DNA from: Candidatus Micrarchaeia archaeon | GTDB taxonomy: Archaea > Micrarchaeota > Micrarchaeia > Anstonellales > VGKX01 | Direction: 5' to 3' | Assembly (NCBI GenBank): GCA_041650395.1 | Contig: JBAZLG010000003.1 | Coordinates: 182,917-246,916 of the forward strand | DNA length: 64,000 bases | Shown here: positions 3,963 through 45,288 of the stretch, piece by piece | Layout: each line of letters opens with the position of its first letter | Position numbering within the stretch: the first letter of the stretch is position 1 | Made by a program: the position numbers and the translations under genes | Notes under the pieces: generated by a model | Database searches by the model: none | The model's input: only the letters and a program-made list of their open reading frames with translations | What the model was told of the DNA's origin: nothing

Positions 3963-4373
3963 TCATTCCTTCTTCAGGTCAATCCTAAGCTCTTCCCACC
4001 TGACATTCTTCCGTTCAATGCAGTTTTTCAGCGTCCTTTCCGCGTGGTTGAGGCCCGCCTTGCCTGTCTTTACCTCAAGGAAAACAATCTCCTCAATCTC
4101 CTTGGCGTCCATGCCCTTGAATATGACAAAGTCTATCGGCTTGCCAAGGAAGCGCGCCTCTGTGGGCGGGTAATTGAACCCTGGCAAGTAGGGGGCGAGC
4201 TGTTCCGAGAACTGCCCGCCAAGCACGGAGCGCGATTTCTTTATGGCGTCCTCGCGTATAAGCGGCACCCTGTCCCTTTGCCACAGAATGTCCGAGTATT
4301 TCATGCCTATGATTATGCCTGCGAGCACAAGCAGGGCAGAAACTATGGCAGCGAGGATTATTAGGGGGTCCAT
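3963..4373 (-). CDS. YraN/Hjc-like PD-(D/E)xK nuclease-fold protein (UPF0102-like) with an N-terminal transmembrane anchor
   Basis: Motif PIDFVIFKG...EIEEIVFLEVKTGKAG matches the GEIDLIA...FVEVKTR core of the YraN / Holliday-junction-resolvase-like fold. The N-terminal hydrophobic helix is LIILAAIVSALLVLAGIIIG. Start set at the internal Met 4373. Confidence 0.5.
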   Translation of the reverse strand: MDPLIILAAIVSALLVLAGIIIGMKYSDILWQRDRVPLIREDAIKKSRSVLGGQFSEQLAPYLPGFNYPPTEARFLGKPIDFVIFKGMDAKEIEEIVFLEVKTGKAGLNHAERTLKNCIERKNVRWEELRIDLKKE

Positions 4374-4435
4374 GGGTTCACCTGCATTGAAAATGCATGG
4401 CCCTGAATTTAAAACAGCCAGGAGAAAAGCATAGC

Positions 4436-5011
4436 ATGCCTTTGGAAACCATATTCGCCACGTCCTCGCCGCAAAGAAAATCCATTTGCCGCAGGCACGG
4501 GATAAGATGCTCGTTTCGCTCAAGCAATGCCAGCGAGGCGGCAAAAGGGAGAAGCGCCAGGCATGTTGCCATTTCAAATGCAATGAAAAAGGCGCGGAAA
4601 TGCCTTCGCAGGCGGCAAGACGCCATTGTGATAGGGGCGGACACAGTAGTCTCCTTCAGGGGAAAAATAATAGGCAAGCCGAAAAGCAAGGGAGAAGCCA
4701 GGCGCATAATATCGGCATTGGCGGGAAAAAGCCACAGGGTAATAACAGGCGTATGCATGCTCCACGCTGGCATGGAAAAATGCTATTCCGACTGTTCAAG
4801 CGTAAAATTCCGCGGGCTAAGCAGGCAAGGCGTGGAAAAGTTCGTGGCAAGCGGGAGTTGGAAGGGAAAGGCGGGCGGCTACGGCGTGCAATCTGATTCA
4901 AGGGAACTAATCGCAAGCGTGGGCGGGAGCAGGGAGAACGTAGAAGGCCTTGACGGGAAAAGGCTGAAAAAAGAGCTGAAGGCGTTCATTGCCAGAATTG
5001 GAAGGGCATGA
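4436..5011 (+). CDS. maf: Maf-like nucleoside triphosphate pyrophosphatase
   Basis: IFATSSPQRK...DAIVIGADTVV...GKPKSKGEARRII pattern typical of Maf/Ham1-type proteins. Start at the in-frame ATG 4436. Confidence 0.65.
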   Translation: MPLETIFATSSPQRKSICRRHGIRCSFRSSNASEAAKGRSARHVAISNAMKKARKCLRRRQDAIVIGADTVVSFRGKIIGKPKSKGEARRIISALAGKSHRVITGVCMLHAGMEKCYSDCSSVKFRGLSRQGVEKFVASGSWKGKAGGYGVQSDSRELIASVGGSRENVEGLDGKRLKKELKAFIARIGRA

Positions 5012-7789: not shown

Positions 7790-8746
7790 CTATTTTTTAA
7801 CAAGCTTCGCCTGCCTGTGCTTTTTCAGGTCAGATGCGAGCTCTACCACGAACCGTGCATAATAGCCGGAATGGTTGTAGGCGAAAGCCGCCTTGTAATT
7901 GGTGCCTTCCCTGGAAAAGCCGGAATGCATGGAAGCGCCGGCATCCCTTAAGTATCTTGATACCAAAGAGATAGAATATTGCACTGAAAACGCGTATTCG
8001 AAGCTTGTGCCTTCAGGCAAGACGTCGTATTTGAGGAAAGACGACGGGAGGAACTGGCCAGGGGTGAAAGCCCCGCGCTCCGAGCCCTTGACTGAAAACG
8101 GGTCGATATGGTACTTGTCGCAGATTTGAAGGAAACAGGACAATTCGCGCTTTGCAAAGGCCTTCCACGCCCTTGAATCCTCCATCAGAGAAAGGAAGAC
8201 ATTGACGCATGCGAGCTCGCCCGTGTATCCTGCGTAAATTGTTTCTATGCCATGGACAGCAGTTACCAACTCCTCCGGAGTGCCTGTGGAGTCCTGCGCC
8301 GCTGCAAGGTCTAAAGAGTATTTTTCCTGGAATTTTATGCCTTTTTCCAGCAACTTGTCATAATGGTACAATTCCTTGTATCTCTCATATGTGAACGGCT
8401 TTTTCACCTTGGAGGTGTCAGGCTTTGGCTTTTTGAAAAGCACGTATTTCTCAAGCTGTGAATCAGAAAGCAGGGAGTCCACGGAAACCGCACCCCTGCC
8501 CGTATGCAGCAGGAATTTCCTGGCTTCCTTGAGAGTTGCCTCCTTGAAAACAAGCATTGGCTTGGTGGAATCCTTTCTTGCCGCTTGTTTTATAGATGGC
8601 TTTGCAATGCAGGTGTCAACCAGCGGCGCGGGCGGCTTGAAAGAAGCCTGCTTCTGGAAAGTGGAAAAAACCCTGTAGCTTAGTATTGACGAGCCAATCA
8701 TCAGGCCTACAATAATGCCTGTTCTGGCTTTTTGCGGTATTTTCAA
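7790..8746 (-). CDS. Membrane-anchored MltB-like lytic transglycosylase (SLT_2 family)
   Basis: AVHGIETIYAGYTGE matches the catalytic GVET region. KGSERGAFTPGQFLPSSF matches KGSFAGAMGYGQFMPSSY. C-terminal YNHSGYYARFV matches YNHSTHYAMAV of E. coli MltB. N-terminal TM helix. The start codon is TTG. Confidence 0.6.
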   Translation of the reverse strand: MKIPQKARTGIIVGLMIGSSILSYRVFSTFQKQASFKPPAPLVDTCIAKPSIKQAARKDSTKPMLVFKEATLKEARKFLLHTGRGAVSVDSLLSDSQLEKYVLFKKPKPDTSKVKKPFTYERYKELYHYDKLLEKGIKFQEKYSLDLAAAQDSTGTPEELVTAVHGIETIYAGYTGELACVNVFLSLMEDSRAWKAFAKRELSCFLQICDKYHIDPFSVKGSERGAFTPGQFLPSSFLKYDVLPEGTSFEYAFSVQYSISLVSRYLRDAGASMHSGFSREGTNYKAAFAYNHSGYYARFVVELASDLKKHRQAKLVKK

Positions 8747-8844: not shown

Positions 8845-8969
8845 GGATAGAGTTGCCCCCGTAGTCCAACCTGGATAGGACGCAAGCCTCCGAATGGCAT
8901 GCCCGCACGTTTGATGCGGCAGACTTGCACAAATGCAAGAAGAAAGTTTGTGGTCCGGGTTCAAATCCC
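8845..8969 (+). tRNA. Candidate intron-containing tRNA-Arg (anticodon CCG). It is 125 nt long, so about 50 nt must be intronic, probably as two introns. No encoded CCA.
   Basis: Acceptor stem GCCCCCG/CGGGGGC. D-arm GUCC-AACCUGGAUA-GGAC. Anticodon stem-loop CAAGC-CUCCGAA. T-arm CCGGG-UUCAAAU-CCCGG at the 3' end. A TATA-like gatatataag sits about 30 nt upstream. The 3' half of the anticodon stem is not contiguous (ACUUG at 8913-8917), and a further 22 nt intervenes before the T-arm. Confidence 0.55.
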
Positions 8970-9009
8970 GGCGGGGGCGTTGACATTTTACTACTCAGCG
9001 GGGCGTGTT

Positions 9010-11061
9010 TTACTTCTTGAGATGGGTTATTGCTGGCCGCAACCCTCTTACAAGCTCCTCAAACGAGGCGTCAAGGAGTTCAGCGTACTTTTTAATATCA
9101 ATTTCCCTCCTGCTTGCCTGCCTGGCAGGCCTGGGGCCGAACAGGGAATAAACAAAGACCGAGACATTTGCCGCATTGGGCTCCTGCCTGAACGCCACCA
9201 CGTGGGGCGCATTTGACACATAATCGCCAATATCCCTTCCAATAGCCTTTGTTATGGCAAAATCTGCCAGGACGAATTCCCCTTCCTTTAGCCTTTTCTT
9301 GAAATCCGCAAGCAACCCTTTCGCCTCCTTTATGCCAGCACATGCATCAGGGGCTGAAAGAATTGCTTTCGCCATCCTCTCCTGGCACTGGACTGCAAGG
9401 GCGCATGAATCCGAATGCCTGACAGCTATTCCTCGCGCCTCCATCCTGCCGTCCTGCATGAGGCCATAATAGTGATTGGCAACTCCTGACGCGTCCTTGG
9501 CTGCTGGGAATACAAGCCTTGAAAAAATGCAATCGAGTTCCAGAGTTATGCCTGTCTCTGCGCTCACTTTCCTGACATAATCCAGATACTGCTTCTCATT
9601 CCCGCCTGACACGAAAACGCTGTCCACCATGCCATACAATGCCTCAAACCCTGCATCTTCGGCAATCTCCTTTGCCATGGAGAGGATATGCCTGCCATAG
9701 AGCATTACGCATTCCTTGCACTCCACATTTGAGAATATGAAGTTGGAGAATCCCAGGTATCCAAAGCAGGTTACTAAGATATTTTTCAGGGCTCTCTGCC
9801 TCATGTCAAACTCCGCCCTCTTAGCCGGGTCAGTTGATGTCTTTGCAAGATGCTTCAGCTCAAGCCTCCGCCTAAGGACTTCCTCGATTCCCTGAGGTAT
9901 TATGCCTTTCCTCTCTGTGCAGGTCTTCCAGCCAGCTTCAGGCACTATCATTGGCTCTTTGCAGCACGTGCATGTGATGGTTTCGGGGCTGATGTTGTAT
10001 TTCACTATGATATTGGGGTACATGGAAGCAAAATCGCATTTTGCCACATTCTCGTAAATCCCCGGAGTCGGATAGATTATGGAGCCGCCCTTGTCCAGCT
10101 GCATGAGGAGCTTGAGGGATTTGGGCCTCTCCATCTCCTTTCGCAAGTCAGGGACAAGGTAGCCATTCCTCTTAGCCGCCCGTATATGAAGATAGGTATT
10201 GAGCCGCCCGGGTGTAATCCTGCAAATTGTGTCAGGCTTTGCGCCCGTCATTTGAGAAAGCTCGATAAGCCTTGCTATCCTGCTTTTCCCTATCCCCAGA
10301 ATCTCCTTTGCCGAGTCTTGCCCGATTGGCAGGTTATGCTCGTTGTAAATGTCGTATCCAATGTCCTTTCTCAGGTCAATATGGGCGCAGGAATCAAAGA
10401 ACACGCCAAAGATATTCCCAAGCGAGCTTGCGGCTCCGTATCGTTTAAGATAAGAGTCCCCGCCATAGGAGAATATCATGTCCGTGCCTGTTTCCCTTAG
10501 AGCCTCTGCCAGCTTGGCAGGATGGATTACCATCTGCGGTTTCCCCTCCAGGACAAGGTTCAAGTATTTGGGATTGACACTTGTAGGGGCTATTGCACCG
10601 CAGGAGAGGGGCGGCAGTTCCAGGGAGCTTGTCTTTTCCATTGATATGAGTTTCCCCTGCTCCGCAACAACGTCGTAGAGCGAGAAGAAGGCGGCATCTT
10701 TTTCCATCACGTACTTGAAATACTGAGGTATTGCCGTTTCGGCTATCTCCTTGATTCCTGGGATAATTTTCATGTCCTTGACTACCCTTTTGTAATTTCT
10801 GGCGTAGTCCACCACTACCTTTATGGCATCAGTCTTGCCCTTCGCGTCCAAGGACACGTACTTCTGCTCTATCTCCGCGTCAAGGACATGGGGGTGCTTT
10901 GAGGCATAATCCTCCGCTTCCTGTGGATTGCCTGACACGAGATAAAACGAATGCCTGAATCTGTCCGAGAGCACTATGTTCCCGCCATCCCGTGTCTTGA
11001 AGCCAAGGCTCACGCTGTCCTGGCCTTCCCGTATATCCAGAAGCCAGCCTTGGAATCGCAT
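9010..11061 (-). CDS. Family-B DNA polymerase-like protein with substituted catalytic motifs (probably an inactivated PolB paralog)
   Basis: Motif A DFASMYPNII is present. The motif B region KNILVTCFGY replaces KxxxNSxYG. The motif C region LYGMVDS replaces YxDTDS. Exo I (FDIET) is not recognisable, with LSCGAIAP at that position. The ATG at 11059-11061 overlaps the upstream gene's TGA stop as ATGA. Confidence 0.6.
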   Translation of the reverse strand: MRFQGWLLDIREGQDSVSLGFKTRDGGNIVLSDRFRHSFYLVSGNPQEAEDYASKHPHVLDAEIEQKYVSLDAKGKTDAIKVVVDYARNYKRVVKDMKIIPGIKEIAETAIPQYFKYVMEKDAAFFSLYDVVAEQGKLISMEKTSSLELPPLSCGAIAPTSVNPKYLNLVLEGKPQMVIHPAKLAEALRETGTDMIFSYGGDSYLKRYGAASSLGNIFGVFFDSCAHIDLRKDIGYDIYNEHNLPIGQDSAKEILGIGKSRIARLIELSQMTGAKPDTICRITPGRLNTYLHIRAAKRNGYLVPDLRKEMERPKSLKLLMQLDKGGSIIYPTPGIYENVAKCDFASMYPNIIVKYNISPETITCTCCKEPMIVPEAGWKTCTERKGIIPQGIEEVLRRRLELKHLAKTSTDPAKRAEFDMRQRALKNILVTCFGYLGFSNFIFSNVECKECVMLYGRHILSMAKEIAEDAGFEALYGMVDSVFVSGGNEKQYLDYVRKVSAETGITLELDCIFSRLVFPAAKDASGVANHYYGLMQDGRMEARGIAVRHSDSCALAVQCQERMAKAILSAPDACAGIKEAKGLLADFKKRLKEGEFVLADFAITKAIGRDIGDYVSNAPHVVAFRQEPNAANVSVFVYSLFGPRPARQASRREIDIKKYAELLDASFEELVRGLRPAITHLKK

Positions 11062-11744
11062 CAGAGCCACCTGGCAAGCGAATGCTGGCTTTGGATTTCC
11101 ACAACGCATTCCGCCTTGCATGGGTGTTTTTGAACCTCAAAATGAAATCTAGGGCGTCCCTTTACCTCTATTATCACTGCCGAATGCTCCCCCAGGTAGG
11201 GATGGATTGGCTGGGGCGAGTTGTCAAACACCACTCCGTGGCAGCTGTTCATGGCGCATAGCCTGGCAAACATGCCTATGGCATGCGTCATTGACATCAG
11301 GCTGGCGTCTTTCTTCCCAGGCTCCTTGTACAAGTCTGATATGGAATCCAAGATAACAAGGTTGAGTCCCGTGCCAAAGTCAAATATGCGCTGCCAGTTC
11401 TGCCGCATTTCCACGGTGTCCCTTGAAAATACCCTCAAGAAAAAGACCGATTCAAGCAGGTTGTCCACGTCCGCGCCCTGCATCTTGGCAGCCTGCACTA
11501 TGCCGTCTATGTCTATAGTCCAGTACCTGTCGTGGTATTCCACGAAGTGAAGGTATAGAATCCTCTTGCCCGGCCTGCATGCCCTCACAAGCATGGCGGT
11601 TGCCAATGGCGAGAGTAGCCGAGGGTCACTGGCGCGCAGCGTGATTATTCCGTCCCCTATGTCCAGGAAACTGTCAAGTGCCCCTATCCCCGTCTTCAAG
11701 CCTTGCCTGCTTGCCTGTTGAGTCCAGTTTTCTTGCTGTTTCAT
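11061..11744 (-). CDS. RadB/KaiC-like RecA-superfamily protein with a degenerate Walker A
   Basis: GIGALDSFLDIG...LVILDSISDLY gives a RecA-fold Walker B, but the P-loop position reads ASDPRLLS with no GKT/S. Translationally coupled to the PolB-like gene by an ATGA overlap. Confidence 0.55.
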   Translation of the reverse strand: MKQQENWTQQASRQGLKTGIGALDSFLDIGDGIITLRASDPRLLSPLATAMLVRACRPGKRILYLHFVEYHDRYWTIDIDGIVQAAKMQGADVDNLLESVFFLRVFSRDTVEMRQNWQRIFDFGTGLNLVILDSISDLYKEPGKKDASLMSMTHAIGMFARLCAMNSCHGVVFDNSPQPIHPYLGEHSAVIIEVKGRPRFHFEVQKHPCKAECVVEIQSQHSLARWL

Positions 11745-11961
11745 CCCTATCACGCTTCAGATAAACAGCTGCGGCAAGCACCATGGCTATGCCTATGTCC
11801 GCCTCGTTTGCCGCGTCTATGGCAGTCCGCCTGTCGCGAATGACTGACATGATTTCATCAAACGCCTTCCTGTCGCTTTTGCCAAGCGCCCTCCCGAATG
11901 CCTCCCACTGGGCTATCTTGGCGTCAATGCGCGCAGTAGCTGACGGTATGCTTCGCCCCAT
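11674..11961 (-). CDS. 95-aa ORF overlapping the 5' end of the RadB-like gene by about 70 nt in another frame (possible N-terminal fragment or frameshift)
   Basis: ATG-initiated ORF with protein-like composition. The overlap suggests either a shadow ORF or a frameshifted RadA-like N-terminus. Confidence 0.25.
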   Translation of the reverse strand: MGRSIPSATARIDAKIAQWEAFGRALGKSDRKAFDEIMSVIRDRRTAIDAANEADIGIAMVLAAAVYLKRDRDETARKLDSTGKQARLEDGDRGT

Positions 11962-12067
11962 CTGAAAACCGCATGAGTTCGCAAGGCTTCAGTTAATAAA
12001 CAGGCAAAGGGGTGGTTTTCCAGTATGTTTCGGTAGGTTAAAATACGCCAAAATCCGTAGTATTTCC

Positions 12068-12733
12068 ATGTGCCTCCGATATGCGTTTAGCGTCATGGAC
12101 AGGGACGAAGTGAAGCAGAGGTTCGCACTGGTTCAGATAGCATACGAGCTTGAAGCCAGGTATAACATAGCTCCAACCCAATCTGTCCCCGCCATATTCA
12201 ACGATTCAAAGAATACGCTGTCTGGCGCACTCTGGGGAATGCCAGCTCAATGGGCAAATGAGCCGGGCAAGCTCCTGTTCAATGCGCGCGCGGAGTCAAT
12301 TGACTCAAAGCCCACATTCAGGCGGCATTTTGAGGAAAGCCGGTGCCTGATGCCTGCCAATGCATTCTACGAGTGGAAACACCCTGAAAAGAGGCCTTTC
12401 AGGTTCTCACTGAAGGATGATGCCATGTTCGCATTTGCAGCCATATACTCAATTGACAAGGAAAGCCAAAGGCGCTCGTGCTGCATGATTACCACGGAAA
12501 ATAATGCCCTTGTGGGCCAGGTCCATAATCGGATGCCTGTTATCCTGCCTCTCATGCGTGAAAAAGAGTTTCTTGATGCCACTCCAAAGGAGGCCAAGGC
12601 CATGCTAGTGCCATTCCCTGACAGCCTGATGGGCATGTATGAGCTTACCTCGCGGATTAACTCGTCAAGGGTGGATTCGCCCGAAATAATCAAGCCCCAA
12701 ACTGAAAAGGGGACATTGAAGGAGTATTTTTGA
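12068..12733 (+). CDS. yedK: SOS-response-associated peptidase (SRAP/YedK/HMCES family, DUF159), abasic-site DNA-protein crosslink protein
   Basis: N-terminal MCLRY matches the MCGRY-type start, with the catalytic Cys at position 2. Conserved ARAES...FRR and YEWK motifs. A TATA-like ttaaaata lies about 28 nt upstream. Confidence 0.8.
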   Translation: MCLRYAFSVMDRDEVKQRFALVQIAYELEARYNIAPTQSVPAIFNDSKNTLSGALWGMPAQWANEPGKLLFNARAESIDSKPTFRRHFEESRCLMPANAFYEWKHPEKRPFRFSLKDDAMFAFAAIYSIDKESQRRSCCMITTENNALVGQVHNRMPVILPLMREKEFLDATPKEAKAMLVPFPDSLMGMYELTSRINSSRVDSPEIIKPQTEKGTLKEYF

Positions 12734-12857
12734 TTGCACTAAATAAGAGACACGCACAGGGCATTTCTGCGGAAATGCCTGCGATGAAGGGGCTTTGTAC
12801 AAAAGGTGAAAGGACAGCAGGATTTGCAGGGGTGTTAAGAATACTGCCATACAAATT

Positions 12858-15593
12858 ATGATTGATGCTATGGAAAATGAGTCGTTAATTAATGAAGACA
12901 AAATTAAACTGCTTGCAAAAAAACAATTGGATCAATATCCTTTAGACAAAGATTTAAGTGCAGAGTGGGATCGGTTCTTGTCTAGTAAATATAATCTACA
13001 ACGTTATAGAGCTCTGGCAAATCTTTTATATAAAAGTTCATTATTAACTCTAAAAAAAGAAACAGAGATTAAAGATAGTGATCAGCGTATTATTCTTTTT
13101 AATAACGCCTATGAAGCAGTAAAACAGGCAGAACTAATTTTTCGAACTATAAACCTTCTTGTTTTAAGTTATGGATGTAGGTCTGTATCCTTACAATTAA
13201 AAATAAAAATTATCTTTGATTCGAACTCTATTTCTATCACTGCTGATTCTTTTAACAAAGAAGTAAATTCGATCATAGATGAAATTAGAATATTCATAAA
13301 TGATTTTGATAAGTATGGAGAAGATATTGCTTCGAAACAAATTCAGATTATTTTGTTATTTGGTTCAGTCATACATTCTCCAGTTATTAAATTGAATAAA
13401 CTTAAAATGTTTAATAAGGCGGAAGAAATAATTCAGTTTATCAAAGAAAATACAGATAAGTTAGATCTGAGATCTGGAAAATATTCTCCATCATTCGAAA
13501 ATACAGCAAAAACAATTTTTGATCAGATACTCTTAGTTAATGCTGAGACTTTGTCCCGAAAAGAACAATCAATAAATGGTTATTCATTAAAAGCGGCAGA
13601 TTATTATCTTGATGTGAGTAATAAAATTGAATCCGAAGCTATCAAAACAGAAGCTCTCCAACATTATTATCGAATTCTGGCTTTTCGTAACAAATATACT
13701 GGTGCAAATAATGATCAACAAAATTTTATTAGTTATATTGACTCTGCGATTGTGACTTCAGAAAAATTCAACCCTAAACAGGCAGTCTTTTTAAAAGGTT
13801 TTAAAAATCAGCATCTTTCAAGATTTAGATCAAGAAGTCTCGAAGATAGAATTGACCTAATTGGGCGAGCGATTGGTTTTTTTAAAATGGCTGGGCCTAA
13901 TCATATATCAGATCTCAAAATATCTAATTTTTATTCATTATATCTACAGTCATTACAATCTGAACTTCTGAATGTTGAACGTTTAAGTTTAATTGAGCGT
14001 GCACTTGTAAATGTTGAGACAACCCCATCAATAAAATCCTTATATCGCATTGAATATAGTGAATTACTACTTCAGTTCCATTTCTTTTCATTTATAAAAA
14101 ATGTTAAAACTATGAATTATCATTCTGCCTTTAAGCATTTGAATGAATTAAATAATCTGGGGGGAAATCGTTCATCAATTAGGTCATATTATTGGATTGG
14201 TCGTATTATTGGTCAATCGTCAAGGGATCAACAGAAAATAAATTTAATTAATTGGAAAGTTGAACTAGAGACTCTTAAGGAAAGTGGTTCGATAGATAAT
14301 CCCAAACTTCGTAATTTCATTGATGATGTCATTTCATATGCTCAACTTGCACAAAACGATTCTTCAGGGATTGTCGAGAAAAAAAGATTAGAGCTAATAA
14401 GTCTGTTTGCTGGTGAACAACTAAATTTGTCTGAAATATACGATATTCGTTCATTACTTGGTTATCCTAAACTTAGTGCGTTGTTACCCAAAAAATTAAA
14501 AGAGCGCATTGAAAAAAACTCTACCATTTCCAATCAAATTTCAGATCCAAATATAAAATTAGAAATTGCCGGATTTTTTAACTATCGATTGATTGGTAAT
14601 TTATTGGACATATTAATTGAAGGTTATTCAAAATTTCTTTATGATGAGGAATGGGAGAAAAAAATAATTGAAATTACCCAAAAAGATCCGGAAAGAATTA
14701 CTATAGGGGATCAATTAAAATTATTAAAAAAATTCTGTCATGAATACTGCCCACTAGAAGGTATGCCGATTGAGTGGTTGGCAGAGCTCGAAGATGATCA
14801 TTTAAACAGTCGAAATTCTATAATCCATGATTTCGAACCCGAAATTGCAAATTTAGAATTGGAACATCTTCAGCAAGCAATTTATTCAATATTAAAATAT
14901 ATTCCATTGCCTCTATATGTAGAAAATAATTCATATTTCTTATTTGAAAAAAAAGAACCCGTAGATCTAAAAATTCAAGATATCCCAGATGGAATCTACG
15001 GTGCTATAATCGCGCCATCTAATGACCGCCCACGTGAACAACAGAAAATTATTTTTGTCTGTAATCTAACTTTGGCAAGCTCCAAACAAATTGGTTATAG
15101 CGAGGGTACCAAAAAAATTCATATTATGCATTACTCAAAAAATAGAGATAATTTTGATGGCACACAATTATTTGAAAAAAAATTGACAATCGATATACCG
15201 ATTGAATTCTGGGCTGAAAAAAATAATGAAAATTTTGATAAGGCATTTATTAAAATTGAAGATAGTGCTAAAAGAGAATTTGGTGAAGCTTATGCAAAAG
15301 ACTATTGTATTTGTAATCAGTTTATAACAGCAACTAGAAAAGCTGCTGATTTAGATGAACATAAACTTATGAATTATATGGAGGGCGCATTATATCATTT
15401 AAGTCGTCATCTTAACTTGAATTATTATACTGGACGTGGATTATTATCAAAAGAAATTATTTTTGGAATAAATAGAGGTCGAATATTGGATTTAAGTAAT
15501 AAAGAAGTGGCTATATTTAAATTTAAAAAAATGAAAAATGTTCTGATAAAAATGAGGGTACGGATTGATACTCCTGATGTTCTATTAAATTAA
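12858..15593 (+). CDS. Large (911 aa) hypothetical protein encoded in a low-GC island, with a single HEPN-like Rx4H motif (SRNSIIHD)
   Basis: About 30% GC against about 57% in the flanks. Single uninterrupted ORF. The only recognisable motif is R-N-S-I-I-H near residue 650. No Walker motifs and no TM. Confidence 0.7.
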   Translation: MIDAMENESLINEDKIKLLAKKQLDQYPLDKDLSAEWDRFLSSKYNLQRYRALANLLYKSSLLTLKKETEIKDSDQRIILFNNAYEAVKQAELIFRTINLLVLSYGCRSVSLQLKIKIIFDSNSISITADSFNKEVNSIIDEIRIFINDFDKYGEDIASKQIQIILLFGSVIHSPVIKLNKLKMFNKAEEIIQFIKENTDKLDLRSGKYSPSFENTAKTIFDQILLVNAETLSRKEQSINGYSLKAADYYLDVSNKIESEAIKTEALQHYYRILAFRNKYTGANNDQQNFISYIDSAIVTSEKFNPKQAVFLKGFKNQHLSRFRSRSLEDRIDLIGRAIGFFKMAGPNHISDLKISNFYSLYLQSLQSELLNVERLSLIERALVNVETTPSIKSLYRIEYSELLLQFHFFSFIKNVKTMNYHSAFKHLNELNNLGGNRSSIRSYYWIGRIIGQSSRDQQKINLINWKVELETLKESGSIDNPKLRNFIDDVISYAQLAQNDSSGIVEKKRLELISLFAGEQLNLSEIYDIRSLLGYPKLSALLPKKLKERIEKNSTISNQISDPNIKLEIAGFFNYRLIGNLLDILIEGYSKFLYDEEWEKKIIEITQKDPERITIGDQLKLLKKFCHEYCPLEGMPIEWLAELEDDHLNSRNSIIHDFEPEIANLELEHLQQAIYSILKYIPLPLYVENNSYFLFEKKEPVDLKIQDIPDGIYGAIIAPSNDRPREQQKIIFVCNLTLASSKQIGYSEGTKKIHIMHYSKNRDNFDGTQLFEKKLTIDIPIEFWAEKNNENFDKAFIKIEDSAKREFGEAYAKDYCICNQFITATRKAADLDEHKLMNYMEGALYHLSRHLNLNYYTGRGLLSKEIIFGINRGRILDLSNKEVAIFKFKKMKNVLIKMRVRIDTPDVLLN

Positions 15594-16050
15594 TTATGAT
15601 TTGAATGTTTGATAATCTTTAACTTAAGTAAAAAATTAAATCACCCTATTTCAACTATTACTTTTTTTTTAAATCATTTAGAGATTTCTTGTTTAATACT
15701 CAGAAAAAATCGAATATACAAATTAGCTTTCATAGGCGTTTATGTTTTATTGCCATAGCAACTATGGGCGAACCTCAAAGCAAATAAACGTGCGGAAAGG
15801 AGCAAATCAAGCGCGTAGGGCATTTTGGCCATATTCATTTTTCATCACTAACGGCGATTATAATTACCCGTCAAATATCACTTTGGCACTTCAGACCGTC
15901 CTCTCTCTGCACATTAATCCCAAATTCTCCATGAAGACTAATTGCATCTCTCTACTTCAATAAGAGCATGAAATGCCTCGCTTTTGCTCTCATTCTCGTT
16001 CTCGTCTTTGTCTTCGTCCTGCCTGCGCTGGTGCACGCAGCCTCAAAAAG

Positions 16051-17101: not shown

Positions 17102-18454
17102 TTACGGGCAGGAGTAGGCCGCAGCCACTGGATTGATATGGTCTGAAGGTATGACAGGAGTGCTTGTGTCCTGCACCGTGTTTTCAAGATAGTTCAGGTT
17201 CAAGAGGAAACTGCACTGCCTGTCCGCGCTGCCATTTGCCGCAAAGCCCGCAAACACGTTCATTTTGGGCACCATGTACTTCTGGCACGAGCCGAACCAG
17301 CCGTTGAATTCGGGATGGATTTGCTGGCCTGAAGTGCTGACAAGCCCATAATCGCACGCCTGTGAAGTGCATGTGCGCGGCATAGAATCAAGCCCGTAAT
17401 AAGCAACGCCAATCACGCCGCTTTGTGCAAGTATCTGCTTGAGCTCGAACACCCTCTGGAACGCGGTTGCCACGTCCTGCTCCGTGTAGGTGCACATGCC
17501 GTCGTCGGACTTGCCCGGGCTTGCGGCAAAGTAATACCACAGTATAGGCTTTCCATATGTCTGGCGAAGGTATTTTGCGAACTGGACGTTTTGCATTATG
17601 GCGATTTCAAGATCGCACGTGCCGGAATAGTTGTTGAGTATGATACCCTGGCCGACAATGTCAACGTACTTGGAATTGTGGCTGCCCCCAGAATCATTGA
17701 GGAAATAATTTATCGTCTTCAAGTCGAGCCTCTGCGCGGCAAGCATTGTCAGGCACTTGGTGCAGTTTGCCTTTACAGCCGCAAGCTGGTCAAGCACCTT
17801 GTACCTGTCGGCATAGCCCGCGTCGACCTCGCTTGAGACTATCACAGGCCCCTCGCCGTCAAGCTCATGCGCTATTGCGCCGCTGGCGCTCGCGTTTATG
17901 TTAAGCCCTGCGCTGTAATAGAGATATACGGGCAACGCGTTCTGGCGCAGGTAGCAGATTGCCATGTCAGCAGACGAGAGCGCCGGCGGGCTTGTCGAGT
18001 TCCCTTTCAGCCAGATTACAGGCATTGTCAGGGAATTGTTGCAGTATGTCTGCGCCCGGGCAAAGTCGGTTGCATTTGGCCCCTGGCCTATCATGAAAAG
18101 CATGGGGAACGAGCCGTCGGAATTCGACGAATCGTTGAGCGCGCTGAAAGTGGAATAGTTCATGCGCGTGAACGAGCAGTTGCCGTAGTGCAGGTTTGAC
18201 GAGAGGCCGAGGAAGCCAGAATCGTTCTTGCACTCGAACACAGTGCATGGCGTCATGTTGCTGTCGGAGCAGACTCGGGTTATGTTGGTTATGTTGAACT
18301 CGACAAGCTTGTCAGGATTGACAGGCCCGCTGACGCAGCCAAGCGAGAGCAGGGCTAAAGAAACAATGGCGGCAAGGAAAATGGCTCGAAGCCACAGCCT
18401 GCCTGCAAAAATTGTCCTGACAGAGTCCATGATAACAATACCTTTATAGCTCAT
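17102..18454 (-). CDS. Secreted or membrane-anchored Cys-rich glycoprotein with many N-x-S/T sequons
   Basis: N-terminal hydrophobic segment AIFLAAIVSLALLSLGC. More than 15 NxS/T sequons. Its ATG overlaps the upstream giant gene's TGA stop as ATGA at 18451-18454. Confidence 0.6.
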   Translation of the reverse strand: MSYKGIVIMDSVRTIFAGRLWLRAIFLAAIVSLALLSLGCVSGPVNPDKLVEFNITNITRVCSDSNMTPCTVFECKNDSGFLGLSSNLHYGNCSFTRMNYSTFSALNDSSNSDGSFPMLFMIGQGPNATDFARAQTYCNNSLTMPVIWLKGNSTSPPALSSADMAICYLRQNALPVYLYYSAGLNINASASGAIAHELDGEGPVIVSSEVDAGYADRYKVLDQLAAVKANCTKCLTMLAAQRLDLKTINYFLNDSGGSHNSKYVDIVGQGIILNNYSGTCDLEIAIMQNVQFAKYLRQTYGKPILWYYFAASPGKSDDGMCTYTEQDVATAFQRVFELKQILAQSGVIGVAYYGLDSMPRTCTSQACDYGLVSTSGQQIHPEFNGWFGSCQKYMVPKMNVFAGFAANGSADRQCSFLLNLNYLENTVQDTSTPVIPSDHINPVAAAYSCP

Positions 18455-21400
18455 TGAGAGAGATTATAATGGCAGTTGGGGCACTCGCCAGTGCCCAGTG
18501 CAAGCGCCCTGCCGCAGCTTGGGCATGAGAAGTGGGTCCTGTCCAAAAGCTTCTTGTGGGAGGACTTGGTGAATGGCTTGATTGGAGCCTTTAACAGGTT
18601 CTTGCCGCTCTCCCCCATGACCTTGCCTATTGCCTCGCCCTTAGTTGCGCCCGTGGCCTCCACGTGGTGCTCCACGTTCTGCTTTATCTCCTTGTATGAG
18701 AACAACGGCCAGAGGAGGGGGACTGCGAAGGCCATCGGCCTGAACCTGCCCTGGAAGCCAAAGCCCGCAAGCTCGTGTTCCCTGTCGCCGAGGTGGAATT
18801 CAGCAAGCTTGTCGCGTTTCCATACGTCCACTGTCGAATCGCGCTGGAAATTGGCCCGCTCGTTCCTGTAATAAAGATTCTTGTAAATGTTAAGCTCCGG
18901 ATTGGCATTGAGCGTCTGGGCAATGCGCGGGTGCATGCGGTCATAACTGTCCTCAAAGTCCTTGAAGAACATGCCCGGCGGGCCGAACTTGTTGACGTTC
19001 TGGTAGTGCACCTTGAACATTTCATAATGCCTCATGGAGCCGCCCGACTGGAAGTAATTGTAGCCGGAGCGGTTGATGTAGGAATAATGGCCCTTTTCAA
19101 AGAACCACTTGTACCATGGAGCGTCAGGGTTCCTGATGTCAGTGCCGTACTTGTCCTCGTAATCCTTTGCAAAGCGCCTCCTGTCATATTCGCCGCTGTT
19201 ATTAAACATGGGCTCGAAAGTCCATGGCAGGGGGGCCTTGAACTTGGTGCCGCCGCCAAGGTCATTTCCGACGTCCCGGTTCACTAGGGAAAATCCTTCC
19301 TCTGTTGAGAACTCGCCCCATCTCCTCGACCGCGGGGCTGCATACCTGTTGAAGCGGTTGAACGACTCCCAGGGGGTCAAAAGCGACATGACAGCCTCGC
19401 CATAGGCTGGGCGCCTTGCCTGCGCCTGGTCGGAAACCACAGGATAGCCAACTGCAAGGGAGAAGAAAGACCTTGTGTGCTGCCCGAATAGCTGGGCAAA
19501 TGGCTTTGTCACCTTTAAGCTCATCTTGTTTATGAAATCCCCGGGCAAGAGGTTGTGGCCGAGGATGATGTTCGGGTTTTCATACATGCCCTGCCCGGTA
19601 TGGTAACCCGTAGCAAGCATCTGGTACATGCCGTAGCTTGAAGAGCCGAAGCGCGGGTCACGCATCTGGCTCGACTCCATTACGTTGTAGAAGTTCTGGA
19701 ACTGCCTGCCCATTTTCCGTGCCATGAGGAATTCGTCGTAATATGACGCGGTCTTTATGCCCTTCTGGACAGAGCGCAGGTCGTCATAAGTCATGTTGTA
19801 ATCGCGCAGGCTTTTCCTGGCCTCGTCCAGTTGTTTCCCTATCTTCGCATGTTCGACAGGGTTCCCGGCACTTGCGCTGTACTTGCCCTGCAATGCAACG
19901 ACATTGTGCTCAAGGGCCTTGGGATCCGTGCCTGCGATCTTGGACTTCAGCCCGGAGAGGACTATTTGGACATCAATGTCGCCATTTTTGACCCTTTCGG
20001 CCAGTTTCTTGCCCTCTGTGGAAGAGAGAGGCGGCAGTTCCGCGTTCCCGCCTTTTGGGAGGTATTTGCCCGAATTGAAGGCGTCCATGTATTGCTGGAG
20101 TATCAGCCTGTTTGCGGCCTGCGTGGCAAAGGAATCCTGCAATGACTTGGTCTTGTTTGAAATGCCGCCAATCATGACAGCTTCCGCGAACAGGCCGAGG
20201 TTTGCTATCTTCCGCGTAATGGAATTGTCCCCGCCCATCTGGGGCGCCTTTTCGCGTATCTGGAGCTTGTCCGAAGTGAAGGCGGCTATCTTATCAGTCC
20301 TTGAAAGGCCGTTAAACTGCGCGAGCGTGGATATGGTGTTGCCGTTTTTGTCCTTCAGGTTCAATGCCTTGACCGCCGCGTCGGTTTTTATCGCCCCGCC
20401 GTCGACGGCATCGGAGAACTGCTGTATGCTGTTTTTCAGCATGGCGACGGCGTTGTCATGGTCGCGCTTGAACGGCTTGTACTTGACCCATTCGCCATTG
20501 TTGTTGAAATACAATTTGCCGTTTAGGACCTTGTCGCCTTCCGCAAGGGACATGCCTGCAAAATAGGGCATCATCTTCATGTCGATGTCCCCGACCCAGA
20601 CGCCCTGGCGCAGCATGCCGCCGGTTATTCCGCGCTTTATTACGTCGGAATAGGCTTCCTCAAACGTCTTGCCCTTGTACCTTGAATCGTCCTTGCCATA
20701 AGCGTCAAACCAGTTCTTGTAGCCCGAGTAAAGCCCGACATTGAACTCCCTCGTGCTGTCAAGCCTCTTGTACAGGTTCTGGTTGCGCGAGTCCAAAACG
20801 CCGACAACCCTGTCAGTGACTCCGTCAAGATAGGCCAGCTGCCTTGCGCGGGATTTCGTCTCCGGAGTGCCGGCATCTGTTCCGGCCGCCACCGCGTACC
20901 TGTTCATTATCAGGCCGTGGCCGGATTTCATTGCCTGGTCCACCCAGCCGTCCCTGCCTATAAGCTTGCCGGCCGCGCCATTGATCCTATCGAATGTCTT
21001 GGAAGCCGCCTCCCTGACGGCAGAATTGTAATCCTTGCCGGATTTCATGGCCATTGCCACTTCGTCCATCATCATAGCAGCCACGGCGCTCTTCCTCTTG
21101 CCGGACAGGGCGTCGTTGTACTGCCTGTTTATCTCGGCCATAGTCTTTTCGGCCAATTCTTCCTTCTTCTTGCCTGACAAGCCGGGCTCGTTGAACGAAT
21201 ATATGCGCGAATATATCTTCCTGTCCGTAAGCGAGGACATTGAAACCGATTTGACGTCCTCGCCGAAAAGGAAGGAGAACTTGTTGGAGAAGCCCTTCAT
21301 CATGTCCGAGAGCTTCTTGTCAATGTTCGCGAGGTCGTCAAAGCCCTTTGAGAGCGAGGACGGGTTCACGAGATTGTCGATTACCTTCATCGTCTTTGCC

Positions 21401-23415: not shown

Positions 23416-23656
23416 ATCAGATATAAGATAATTCTTTATTTTAAACCTATGTTTAAGGGGACAAATGCGCCCAATCCATGGCAGGGCGCATGTGTTTAAA
23501 AATGCTTTTGTGTGGAGCGTTACGCATTTAGCCCGAAACCCCGCCCGGCCATGCCGGCCTAAATCAGAAAAAAGCAAAAAACATGCCAAAAAGGCTGCAA
23601 GCGGGTTGCCTGCGCACAGGTAAGCGGCATTTTTAGCCATCATGGCCGCCCGAAAA

Positions 23657-43879: not shown

Positions 43880-44692
43880 ATGAATATTGTCAAAGAATAT
43901 TTAATATTGGCTATTGGAGATCTCAAAGCAGCAGAAATACTTCAGAAAAATAAGCTTTACCCCTATGCAATATATTTTACCATTCAAGCATTGGAAAAAG
44001 TAACAAAAGCTCAATTAATCTTGAATAACACGATACCACCAGAACAGCTAAAAAAGAAAATAGGGCATAACCTTTTTTTAGGATTTGCCCGATATTGGCG
44101 CCAAAATAAAACCATGTGGGATGCTCATAAAATAATGATGTCAAACCCTAAATTTAAAATAATGTTTAACGATTCAGAAAGCCACATAAAAAATGAAAAA
44201 GAAATTGCAGCAAACATAAAGGCGATAGAATCACACATAAAAAAATTGGAGATAACTGCACTGGACAAAAATAGAAAACAAGAAGAAGCTGAAAAAACCA
44301 TAGAAAGATTAGATAAATACTATAGTAAAACAGGAGAAGAATACGAAAAACAAAGAAAACAAGTAGAAAATATTTGTTCTGAACTTAATGAAAAGATTAT
44401 GACAACTGAGAACGAAGAGCAAAGAAAAAAACTAGAAGAAAACATTAGAATTATTAAAAATGCAAAAGGCTATCTCACAGGAATCATTAGTTCAGATTAT
44501 ATTTTGAAAGTAATACAAGAATTAGCAGAGATAATGCCTAATCAAGATGAGTTAAGATATCCTGAAAGCAACCCATTAGACAAATTTAATGAAAACCATC
44601 CATTAGTAAAGAATTTGGAAGGAGTAAATAGACATCTAAAAAACAGTATAGAATTCACGCTTAGATTAGATCTTAGCAGTTGGGACAACTAA
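43880..44692 (+). CDS. HEPN-domain protein with a C-terminal K/E-rich coiled-coil extension. First gene of low-GC island 2.
   Basis: LILAIGDLKAAEILQKNKLYPYAIYFTIQALEKVTKAQLIL...KIGHNLF aligns with the canonical HEPN helix pattern (L..A..DL.AA..LL....Y..AvfhaqQAvEKalKAlL...tHdL). About 30% GC. Confidence 0.65.
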   Translation: MNIVKEYLILAIGDLKAAEILQKNKLYPYAIYFTIQALEKVTKAQLILNNTIPPEQLKKKIGHNLFLGFARYWRQNKTMWDAHKIMMSNPKFKIMFNDSESHIKNEKEIAANIKAIESHIKKLEITALDKNRKQEEAEKTIERLDKYYSKTGEEYEKQRKQVENICSELNEKIMTTENEEQRKKLEENIRIIKNAKGYLTGIISSDYILKVIQELAEIMPNQDELRYPESNPLDKFNENHPLVKNLEGVNRHLKNSIEFTLRLDLSSWDN

Positions 44693-44697
44693 ACATC

Positions 44698-45288
44698 CTA
44701 GCTGGTTTTTTTAGAAATTTCATCAAAGATTTGGTCGGCTCCCCACGCTTGAGCTGCCGCCCATGCCATCTTACGTTTCTTTTCACGAGTTAAAGCGGCA
44801 GCAGGTTTGTAACCAAGATCGTGATTAGCCTCAGCCCATGCATATTGGAAAAGAGTGCAAATTTGAATTTCAAAAAAATCGATAGGAAGAGAATATTTTT
44901 CGACCATAGCTCGCGGAATTAGACAAATTATTTTTTTCCCTTCATAACCAAAAGAAGTTGGATCCTCTGGCTCAGCAAATCTGTCTTCTACAATTGCAAA
45001 TAATTTTAATATTTTAGTTGTTGCTGGAGTAATATTTGAACGATATTTAACAACAATACGAATACCTATTTGGTCTTGTATTTCAGATACTGGTGAATTA
45101 TATTTAAAGGTACCATCCTTATTCATTGTTTTTGACTTCTTAGAAAAACTATGGATAGACTTAACACGATACTTAACCTGGTCAACATATTCAGACTTCA
45201 AAAAGGAAGCTTGTAGTTGATTAAATAAATCTTTAGCTGGTCTTTCTAATTTTGGGAATAATGATTTATACTGAATTTCTTTTACCAT
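44698..45288 (-). CDS. RelA/SpoT-homolog (RSH) synthetase-fold nucleotidyltransferase, small alarmone synthetase-like (toxSAS-like)
   Basis: YRVKSIHSFSKKSK matches the RxKxxxSxxxK motif. IGIRIVVKY matches the G-x-R-I-V motif. FFEIQICTLFQYAWAEANHDLGYKP matches EIQIRT..QH.WAE..H...YK. About 30% GC. The start overlaps the upstream gene's stop by 1 nt. Confidence 0.75.
   Translation of the reverse strand: MVKEIQYKSLFPKLERPAKDLFNQLQASFLKSEYVDQVKYRVKSIHSFSKKSKTMNKDGTFKYNSPVSEIQDQIGIRIVVKYRSNITPATTKILKLFAIVEDRFAEPEDPTSFGYEGKKIICLIPRAMVEKYSLPIDFFEIQICTLFQYAWAEANHDLGYKPAAALTREKKRKMAWAAAQAWGADQIFDEISKKTS

Follow-up and report, generated by a model that had tools for sequence, protein, structure and literature searches.

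Organization of the locus

The window, which is the whole stretch of 64 000 nucleotides of Micrarchaeia DNA that was analysed, carries on its reverse strand three co-oriented genes with overlapping frames in the order PPB2, iRadA, PolB2, with PolB2 last. PPB2 (arCOG07300/DUF8156) lies at 11674..11961 (−) and encodes 95 residues with the N-terminus MGRSIPS; it overlaps the start of iRadA by 26 nt. The iRadA gene was called at 11061..11699 (−) with a TTG start, encodes 212 residues and ends in a stop codon that overlaps the start of PolB2. PolB2, a B2-group family-B DNA polymerase, occupies 9010..11061 (−); its 683 residues comprise an exonuclease-like domain without an active site and the palm, fingers and thumb. 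The gene for SRAP, an abasic-site-protecting protein, is found at 12068..12733 (+) and is transcribed divergently from the operon (Pfam SRAP, 1.5e-51), from which it is separated by a 106 bp intergenic region (11962..12067). In the preliminary description the polymerase gene was read on its own and the three-gene operon with PPB2 and iRadA was overlooked.

The polymerase gene

The reading frame is open over 9010..11121 (−), corresponding to 703 residues, and gene callers start it at 11061, which gives the 683-residue form. The ATG of this form overlaps the stop codon of the upstream iRadA gene (TGATG), and an exact database protein exists for it; the frame is intact, as had been described. The sequence matched the Pfam family DNA_pol_B (5.9e-36) and, in a sequence search, the structures of Thermococcus PolB (8.5e-44). 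The collinearity with archaeal PolB that had been proposed was borne out by the family profile, which matched archaeal PolB structures at 1.1e-100 over the full length. The AF2 model (pLDDT 91.2) is a confident full-length polymerase fold with a TM score of 0.78 to KOD/9N PolB–DNA complexes, and its top structural matches were DNA-bound structures in the replicative state.

The product of 9010..11061 belongs to the PolB2 (B2/G2) family. The earlier assignment to the class of 'inactivated PolB paralogues' was right, this class being the family described by Rogozin et al. in 2008 (PMC2527604) and now named PolB2 or B2/G2. Through the palm and fingers the protein is 37% identical to Dpo2 of Sulfolobus islandicus (E = 4e-40). 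A rough neighbour-joining tree was computed from 219 columns with two outgroups (KOD and Pab B3) and no B1 sequence; a long branch separated the ingroup, including Sis Dpo2, from the outgroups, and over the same columns the identity was 39% to Dpo2 versus 30–33% to B3. The best NCBIfam model, NF004416, scored 235.6 bits, which is below its cutoff of 516 bits, and the Micrarchaeia PolB2 is therefore a divergent member. Since the nearest full-length orthologue is only 46–47% identical, synonymous sites are saturated; selection was gauged by column conservation among homologues. At least 586 related loci were found in archaea and bacteria, and the variant motifs described below were common to all of the best 120 PolB2 homologues listed, which come from both domains. 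The Micrarchaeota clade, of about 65 sequences, forms a deep, separate branch in the neighbour-joining tree.

Polymerase and exonuclease motifs

All motif coordinates were verified by translation. Motif A (DFASMYPNII, 10006..10035, −) is kept, as had been noted, and contains the metal-ligand Asp D343 and the steric-gate Tyr Y348. Motif B reads KNILVTCFGY (9757..9786, −) and aligns with KILANSLYGY of KOD PolB, with N491 replaced by V, S492 by T and Y494 by F; the Lys (K426) and Gly are unchanged. Motif C reads LYGMVDS (9619..9639, −) against IYSDTDG of KOD, with D540 replaced by M and T541 by V, and with D542 unchanged as the distal Asp D480. The substituted forms of motifs B and C, including the exchange of the first Asp for Met, were thus confirmed as previously read. 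PolB2 enzymes, a few TACK members excepted, retain only the distal Asp of motif C, and this is the arrangement found here (M478 and D480). Intact DxE, NSxYG or DTD motifs were also sought at shifted positions and none was found; pairwise and profile alignments to KOD and Pab PolB and to Sis Dpo2 all placed motifs A, B and C in the same frame of alignment. Upstream of motif A, D323-K324 (10090..10095, −) forms the D(K/R) motif, the signature of B2/G2 polymerases defined in PMC7544198, and pairs with 253-DK-254 of the S. islandicus enzyme. This motif is predicted to touch the N-terminal arm of PPB2 (PMC7544198, PMC11791011).

The Exo I position had been placed at LSCGAIAP (residues 152–159, 10585..10608), which is probably one strand out of register. 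When aligned with hmmalign through the family profile, FDIET of KOD PolB pairs with KLISMEKT (residues 137–144, 10630..10653, −), the strand opposite LAFDIETL, and LSCGAIAP pairs with the next strand, ILMISYAD of KOD. The loss itself stands, as there is no DxE in either place. In the profile alignment to KOD the exonuclease carboxylates D141, D215 and D315 correspond to S140, L205 and S250, and the sole acidic residue, opposite E143, is the non-conserved Glu E142. These three carboxylate columns are variable or gapped among homologues. PolB2s in general lack an exonuclease active site, with Exo I unconserved and Exo III absent, and no such site was found in this protein.

Conservation was examined in 48 archaeal and bacterial homologues. 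D343 of motif A, the finger residue R399, K426 of motif B and the distal D480 of motif C are invariant (48/48), and Y348 and Y531 are each present in 46 of the 48. The substituted sites of motif B are also fixed (V430, F433 and G434, 48/48) and position 478 is always hydrophobic (I, L, M, V or Y). D323 is found in every homologue and is followed by Lys or Arg in 46 of them. Inteins are typically located in essential active-site motifs, and two PolB2 orthologues carry one in motif B, inserted between LVT and CFGY. Because the catalytic residues are invariant and the substituted positions are themselves conserved, the pattern points to a specialized active site and not to decay.

The partner genes iRadA and PPB2

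The iRadA protein is a homologue of the Rad51/RadA ATPase core that lacks both Walker A and the N-terminal domain. Its AF2 model (pLDDT 88.5) gave RAD51, RadA and DMC1 as the top Foldseek matches (TM 0.77–0.80, E = 1e-13), and a mixed iRadA profile matched RadA structures at 7.9e-21, the match beginning in the RadA core, at residue 112 of 349 (1pzn). The position of GEFGSGKT in RadA is occupied by ITLRASDPRLLSPLATAML of iRadA, with RASDPRLL opposite the motif, and VDGGNSFNPY is replaced by HFVEYHDRYW; a Walker-B-like LDS (D118) is kept.

Homologues of iRadA were few: a word-indexed search gave three proteins and an exhaustive representative search gave 37, all from one narrow subfamily. An HMM built from non-Micrarchaeota iRadAs alone did not match the protein, and hhalign against the Sis iRadA gave only 49%. 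Against the iRadAs of other phyla hhalign gave 98.7% (E = 2.7e-16, 210 columns), and an iterated HMM ties the Micrarchaeia protein to 62 other iRadAs. Judged from these alignments and the modelled structure, the Micrarchaeia iRadA is a divergent subfamily that is tied to the other iRadAs only by profile–profile comparison and fold.

The C-terminus of iRadA carries a PCNA-interaction-like motif, QHSLARWL (QxxLxxWL, 11064..11087, −). Corresponding motifs are kept at the extreme C-terminus of iRadA in Micrarchaeota orthologues (QPSLMRWML, QRTLARWLA, QYKLERWL and QYRLSGWL). No PCNA motif was found at the C-terminus of the 683-residue PolB2. In published operons PCNA motifs are commoner on iRadA than on PolB2, and iRadA is predicted to bind PolB2 via a β–α motif resembling that of Rad51 oligomerization (PMC11791011).

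PPB2 has been described as small and helical, its N-terminal MGRT arm being conserved and followed by an Arg further downstream (PMC11791011). The Micrarchaeia protein begins MGRSIPSATAR, with Ser for Thr at position 4 of the arm. Searching the 875 ORFs of the window with an HMM of 53 PPB2 sequences from other phyla gave 11674..11961 as the sole match (E = 3.4e-15), and the protein carries the precomputed annotation PF26485 DUF8156. A BLASTP comparison with the Sis PPB2 gave no alignment, and searches of the iRadA and PPB2 ORFs with Pfam and NCBIfam gave no match, even at E ≤ 10.

PPB2 and iRadA adjoin PolB2 in about 60 of 83 related loci, and most of the 83 have a small ORF beginning MGR(T/S) upstream of PolB2. 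The order PPB2–iRadA–PolB2 recurs in four other Micrarchaeota genomes, in differing neighbourhoods. The overlapping frames of the three genes would be translationally coupled.

Neighbourhood of the operon

The divergent intergenic region (11962..12067) contains A/T-rich TATA-like boxes about 25–35 nt upstream of each ATG, TTTATTAA on the operon side and TTAAAATA on the SRAP side, which are putative promoters. The SRAP gene is enriched beside polB2, occurring in 134 of 1823 operons (PMC11791011), and SRAP is a probable functional associate of the PolB2 operon; in the other Micrarchaeota loci examined it is not next to the operon. The annotated genes beside the operon include no recognized orc1/cdc6 gene. 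PADLOC was run on the large ORFs nearby to see whether they form a defence system and gave no meaningful result.

Comparison with known systems

The characterized PolB2s come from thermoacidophilic Crenarchaeota and are about 37–39% identical to the Micrarchaeia PolB2 in the catalytic core. The family was first described in 2008 as 'inactivated' (PMC2527604). Dpo2 of S. islandicus and S. solfataricus is nevertheless a robust polymerase without 3′–5′ exonuclease activity that efficiently extends mismatched or lesion-paired termini (PMC8764526). It is the enzyme, inducible by damage, on which targeted mutagenesis depends (PMC7390963); it is distributive, and S. islandicus can do without it (PMC8764526, PMC7390963). 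These biochemical data were obtained with purified enzyme; the roles of iRadA and PPB2 in the literature are computational (PMC8764526, PMC11791011).

The motifs of the Micrarchaeia protein (LDKGG, DFASMYPN, KNILVTCFGYLGF and YGMVDS) have direct counterparts in Sulfolobus Dpo2 (DK before GG, DFSSMYPS, KWILVASFGYLGY and HSIIDS). Neither polymerase has an exonuclease active site and both are encoded alongside PPB2 and iRadA. The Sulfolobus genes are arranged PPB2–PolB2–iRadA (group 3a), unlike the order found here, and Dpo2 has Ile rather than Met at the first position of motif C and two Cys rather than a four-Cys cluster (CxCC...C; C364, C366, C367 and C381). The Micrarchaeia host is a mesophilic-type DPANN MAG, and its iRadA and PPB2 can barely or not be aligned pairwise with the Sulfolobus proteins. 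The exonuclease-like domain of the 683-residue Micrarchaeia PolB2 is well predicted; for the family as a whole 'various degrees of structural decay' have been described.

The PolB2 mutasome was modelled by Timinskas et al. in 2025 as PolB2 plus iRadA plus three PPB2 (PMC11791011), the docking of a PPB2 trimer on PolB2–iRadA being taken from AlphaFold-Multimer models of 40 other operons. The Micrarchaeia locus resembles this system (PMC11791011) in having all three components adjacent and co-oriented, an MGR(T/S) arm with a downstream Arg, the D(K/R) motif, a RadA homologue lacking both P-loop and N-domain, a PCNA-box-like motif on iRadA and not on PolB2, and SRAP nearby. The order PPB2–iRadA–PolB2 has no counterpart among the published labels 1a (iRadA–PPB2–PolB2) and 3a/3b (PPB2–PolB2–iRadA) in the accessible part of PMC11791011, a comparison that covered groups 1a, 3a and 3b of a set that also includes 1b, 1c, 2 and 4. 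The sole Micrarchaeota operon in that part of the listing is of type 1a with an HGIVD-type motif C and hence comes from a different clade. When the accessions of the Micrarchaeia clade or inventories of Micrarchaeota polymerases were sought in the accessible parts of the literature and its supplements, just this one unrelated type-1a operon was found.

With the replicative PolB1 and PolB3 enzymes (Thermococcus KOD/9N and Pyrobaculum PolB3) the Micrarchaeia PolB2 shares the fold, collinearity over the full length, motif A, the Tyr of KxY and the finger Arg and Lys. It differs from them in the absence of the Exo I, II and III carboxylates, in the replacement of NSxY by VTxF and of DTD by (I/M)VD, and in the gain of the D(K/R) motif and of dedicated accessory subunits. 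Two further systems are functional analogues only (PMC11791011, PMC8764526). Escherichia coli Pol V (UmuD′2C–RecA) is likewise a bypass polymerase with a subunit of the RecA/Rad51 family, but it belongs to the Y family and is not homologous to PolB2. Eukaryotic Pol ζ is a proofreading-dead B-family extender, but it is of the Delta-like clade and has other accessory subunits.

Proposed function

The locus is very probably a PolB2 mutasome operon encoding a proofreading-deficient, catalytically active polymerase for damage tolerance. The earlier view that the function was unknown and perhaps structural or regulatory is outdated, given that Dpo2 is an active extender (PMC8764526) and that the catalytic residues are invariant in all 48 homologues. 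The Asp of motif A and the distal Asp of motif C would act as the metal ligands of PolB2; the Arg of the fingers, the Lys of motif B and the Tyr of the steric gate have been retained as well. By analogy with Sulfolobus Dpo2, the Micrarchaeia enzyme would polymerize in DNA-damage tolerance and may be induced by damage: a nucleotide would first be placed opposite the lesion and PolB2 would then extend the distorted or mismatched primer end, on which a replicative polymerase would stall or which it would degrade. The complex is most likely to consist of one PolB2, one ATPase-dead iRadA and a PPB2 trimer, a pentamer in which the N-terminal MGR(S/T) arm of PPB2 would be inserted between PolB2 and iRadA close to the DNA. 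Through the QHSLARWL box at the C-terminus of iRadA the complex may be tethered to PCNA, and SRAP, from the divergent gene, could handle abasic sites as part of this response to damage.

It is very unlikely that PolB2 is instead the main or only family-B polymerase of the cell, with a housekeeping role in replication (for example beside PolD) rather than one dedicated to damage tolerance. DPANN genomes are reduced, no second DNA polymerase gene was present among the larger ORFs scanned in the 64 kb window, B2 is the sole PolB in 58 of 628 B2-encoding genomes (PMC7544198) and a PCNA box on iRadA would fit a replisome-associated enzyme. The protein has no proofreading site, however, and Dpo2 is distributive and can be dispensed with by S. 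islandicus (PMC8764526, PMC7390963); repair is suggested both by the partners encoded in the operon and by the adjacent SRAP gene, and polD is present in a Micrarchaeota relative that has been cultured (PMC8784108).

The family was first interpreted in print (PMC2527604) as a truly inactive pseudo-polymerase that was retained for a structural or regulatory task in the replisome. This interpretation would account for the exchange of the first Asp of DxD for Met, for the substituted Asn, Ser and Tyr of motif B and for the missing exonuclease site. It is nonetheless highly improbable here: all of the phosphoryl-transfer and dNTP-binding residues that could be mapped are invariant in 48 distant homologues, the substitutions are fixed across the family and not variable, and Sulfolobus PolB2s whose motif C is of the same IID/IVD type are robust polymerases (PMC8764526).

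A mobile element as the carrier of PolB2, such as a casposon, a provirus or a plasmid remnant inserted beside a tRNA gene, is barely credible. In its favour, the 3′ end is 31 nt away from a tRNA gene, a low-GC island begins about 1 kb past the operon, the neighbourhoods differ between Micrarchaeota, and horizontal movement of PolB2 operons among archaea has been reported (PMC11791011). Against it, the annotated neighbours include no gene for an integrase, Cas1, a terminal protein, a capsid or a replication initiator, the GC content of the operon (0.50–0.52) is near the 0.52–0.57 typical of the window, the polymerase falls in the cellular B2 clade and not with protein-primed or casposon PolBs, and the flanks are housekeeping genes (Trm5/TYW2, LeuRS, Maf and inositol monophosphatase).

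Implications

The literature already describes the PolB2 family, its deceptive appearance of being 'inactive', the activity that it in fact has and both partner proteins. The field changes little, and the value of the Micrarchaeia locus is corrective and incremental. In annotation, a dead-looking polymerase should become a PolB2 translesion polymerase operon and two unannotated upstream ORFs should become iRadA and PPB2. The Micrarchaeota (DPANN) clade that is added is well sampled; its gene order is its own and its iRadA diverges strongly. Such a clade could serve, in the manner of an outgroup, in testing whether three features of the predicted mutasome are universal: the MGR(T/S) arm of PPB2, the D(K/R) motif of PolB2 and a PCNA box carried by iRadA.

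A wider reading, which is unlikely, takes the Micrarchaeota proteins as a distinct, deep-branching and uncatalogued version of the PolB2 mutasome in which PolB2 may also be the only PolB and a routine component of the replisome together with PolD. If PolB2 were the sole family-B polymerase of a reduced, host-dependent DPANN archaeon, it would not be purely damage-induced. Features of this reading are the coupled PPB2–iRadA–PolB2 frames, the remodelled iRadA with its PCNA box, the CxCC...C cluster and the motif B inteins.

For the biology of DPANN archaea, it would be mildly interesting that a streamlined symbiont genome has kept a system for mutagenic bypass.

Gene, fold and family assignment

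The frame at 9010..11121(-) is uninterrupted over 703 amino acids. The 683-aa form starting at 11061 (MRFQGWLLD...), which was also chosen by the gene callers, is identical to a database protein (P0001, encoded on a contig of 375,815 bp and annotated 'DNA polymerase domain-containing protein, Candidatus Micrarchaeia archaeon'). The ORF is intact, as the preliminary description had stated; its start agrees with the orthologue consensus MxxGWLLD. The protein was matched by Pfam DNA_pol_B (5.9e-36) and by Thermococcus PolB structures (8.5e-44, with the pairwise alignment limited to residues 248–625). A profile of 48 homologues placed residues 11–680 over residues 10–754 of the Thermococcus reference structure KOD PolB (1.1e-100), and an AlphaFold2 model (pLDDT 91.2, pTM 0.88) superposed on archaeal PolB–DNA complexes with a TM score of ∼0.78. 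These matches show that it is collinear with archaeal PolB, as had been proposed.

Originally named 'inactivated archaeal B-family polymerases' (PMC2527604), the family currently goes by PolB2 or B2/G2. The signatures given for it in the literature, namely a single conserved Asp in motif C, an unconserved Exo I, a missing Exo III and a D(K/R) motif specific to the group (PMC7544198), were all found in the window protein. The last is D323-K324, in which the Asp is invariant and is followed by Lys or Arg; it lies opposite 253-DK-254 of Dpo2, the PolB2 of Sulfolobus islandicus (sequence from the supplement of PMC11791011), which over the palm and fingers is 37% identical to the window protein (E 4e-40). 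A rough NJ tree placed the Micrarchaeota PolB2s in one clade (support 99/100), with all remaining PolB2s, Dpo2 among them, as its sister group and the PolB3 outgroup far away. On these grounds the protein is assigned to PolB2, and its earlier classification as an 'inactivated PolB paralog' was borne out by both the signatures and the grouping with Dpo2.

Catalytic and exonuclease motifs

Motifs were called by translation of the exact coordinates and alignment to KOD, and the polymerase motifs first read by eye were recovered. Motif A (DFASMYPNII) retains the Asp and the steric-gate Tyr; motif B (KNILVTCFGY) retains the Lys and Gly with N→V, S→T and Y→F replacements; motif C (YGMVDS) retains D542 with D540→M and T541→V (KOD numbering). 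Exo I had been placed at LSCGAIAP. The family profile set KLISMEKT (residues 137–144) opposite KOD LAFDIETL and LSCGAIAP (residues 152–159) opposite the next KOD strand, ILMISYAD; the position was thus probably one strand off, while the absence of an exonuclease site stood. The shift would not restore that site, because KOD D141, D215 and D315 are replaced by S140, L205 and S250, in columns that are variable or gapped among homologues.

The search returned 458 homologues at E ≤ 1e-5. Among the best 120 of these, which include ∼65 Micrarchaeota sequences with 38–46% identity, the variant motifs K..LVTCFGYxGY and (Y/H)G(I/L)(V/T)DS were present in every one (120/120). The 120 also contain relatives with 28–38% identity from other archaea (Methanomassiliicoccales, Bathyarchaeia, Thaumarchaeota and Thorarchaeota) and from many bacteria (Desulfobaccales, Acidobacteria, Nitrospirota, Ignavibacteria and others). 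Across the 48 aligned homologues D343 (motif A), R399 (finger), D480 (motif C) and motif B K426, V430, F433 and G434 were invariant, and Y348 and Y531 nearly so. Judged from these alignments, the variants are a conserved alternative and not decay.

Two Micrarchaeota orthologues (P0012, 1188 aa; P0054, 1124 aa) carry an intein (Intein_splicing and LAGLIDADG_3) within motif B at LVT|CFGY, with the Cys as the +1 residue; the window equivalent is 9769/9770, between T431 and C432. This site is presumably at or beside the motif-B site of Thermococcales PolB inteins. A CxCC...C cluster (residues 364–381; 9919..9972(-)) comprises C364, C366 and C381, kept in 44–47 of 48 homologues, and C367, kept in 33; the haloarchaeal PolB2 counterpart is CDCH...C. 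The cluster may form a metal site. KOD has Cys aligned at two of the positions, which we take to be a disulfide pair.

Operon partners and genomic surroundings

The polB2 gene is tightly linked to genes for PPB2, which is small and helical and has a conserved MGRT arm at its N-terminus, and iRadA, a RadA homologue lacking the N-terminal domain and ATPase site; a PolB2:iRadA:PPB2(3) complex is predicted, PCNA-binding motifs are commoner on iRadA and SRAP is enriched near these operons (PMC11791011). Both partners lie directly upstream of the window polB2. PPB2 (11674..11961(-), 95 aa, starting MGRSIPSATAR; precomputed Pfam DUF8156) was the sole match among 875 window ORFs to an HMM of 53 PPB2s from other phyla only (3.4e-15). 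iRadA (11061..11699(-), 212 aa, TTG start) gave no match in a Pfam search, but its model (pLDDT 88.5) has the RAD51/RadA/DMC1 core (TM 0.77–0.80, E ∼1e-13), a mixed iRadA profile matched RadA structures (7.9e-21) and its subfamily profile matched iRadAs of other phyla (98.7% probability, E 2.7e-16). RASDPRLL occupies the RadA GEFGSGKT position. The iRadA C-terminus is QHSLARWL, a PCNA-box-like QxxLxxWL motif kept in orthologues; no such box was found at the PolB2 C-terminus. The 26-nt PPB2/iRadA overlap (11674..11699) and the base shared by the iRadA stop and PolB2 ATG (ctcTGATGcga, 11061) show tight packing of the genes and suggest translational coupling and control of a fixed stoichiometry.

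The order PPB2–iRadA–PolB2 recurs in four other Micrarchaeota genomes with otherwise differing surroundings, whereas most other taxa have iRadA–PPB2–PolB2. The iRadAs of these four (L002–L005) have (H/Q)W(V/T)(D/E)YH.RYW(T/S) instead of the VDGGNSFNPY found family-wide (L006–L083); an HMM of the other 62 iRadAs did not match Micrarchaeota iRadAs, which profile–profile comparison and fold do link to the family.

A divergently transcribed SRAP gene (Pfam 1.5e-51) is separated from the operon by a 106-bp spacer, with TATA-like A/T boxes, read by eye, ahead of both flanking starts. For an origin of the operon in a mobile element there are only circumstantial hints, an adjoining tRNA gene and a low-GC island close by; no gene typical of such elements was found among the annotated neighbours. 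The tRNA gene (8855..8979(+), 125 nt; Rfam 48.5 bits, missed by ARAGORN) is 31 nt away from the stop codon of polB2, and its anticodon-loop region is interrupted by 54 nt, an intron of archaeal type. Low-GC islands occur at 12000..16000 (GC 0.31–0.38) and 44000..46000 (0.34), versus ∼0.52–0.57 elsewhere in the window. The first contains, directly past the SRAP gene, a 911-aa ORF (12858..15593) without a Pfam or PADLOC match; a 1794-aa ORF (18451..23835(-)) and its downstream neighbour of 450 aa (17102..18454) were likewise unmatched. Unexpectedly for an archaeon, a 318-aa protein (7790..8746(-)) has an SLT_2/MltB-like lytic murein transglycosylase domain (Pfam 1.5e-26); its N-terminus is hydrophobic, and it may be of bacterial origin. 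A Holliday-junction-resolvase-type endonuclease (∼3963..4373(-); PF10107, precomputed annotation of the window locus) and a Maf-like protein (4397..5011(+)) lie 5–7 kb from the operon.

Proposed function

The Dpo2 enzymes of S. islandicus and S. solfataricus polymerise robustly but distributively and have no exonuclease activity; they are weak at lesion insertion and efficient at extending mismatched or lesion-paired termini (PMC8764526). Dpo2 is the sole damage-induced polymerase and is needed for targeted mutagenesis (PMC7390963). From homology to Dpo2, the window PolB2 would likewise be a translesion-synthesis extender, forming an assembly with PPB2 and iRadA, the latter of which would recruit it to PCNA. 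Family membership, residue conservation, folds and gene order come from the present analysis; activity, damage induction, complex stoichiometry and PCNA binding are extrapolated by analogy. A housekeeping role, or that of the cell's sole PolB, would fit the finding of no other polymerase gene among the larger ORFs scanned in the 64-kb window but is disfavoured because proofreading is lacking and the operon has a repair context; a cultured Micrarchaeota relative also encodes polD. The invariance of the catalytic residues and the biochemistry of the Sulfolobus enzymes make it unlikely that the protein is truly dead and only a structural subunit.

The literature already covers the PolB2 family together with its activity and partners, and the exact window protein is in NCBI. 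Modestly new are the order PPB2–iRadA–PolB2, which is not among the operon-group labels compared (1a and 3a/3b of the PMC11791011 supplement), the unusual divergence of the Micrarchaeota iRadA and the standing of the Micrarchaeota PolB2 clade as a deep, separate branch.
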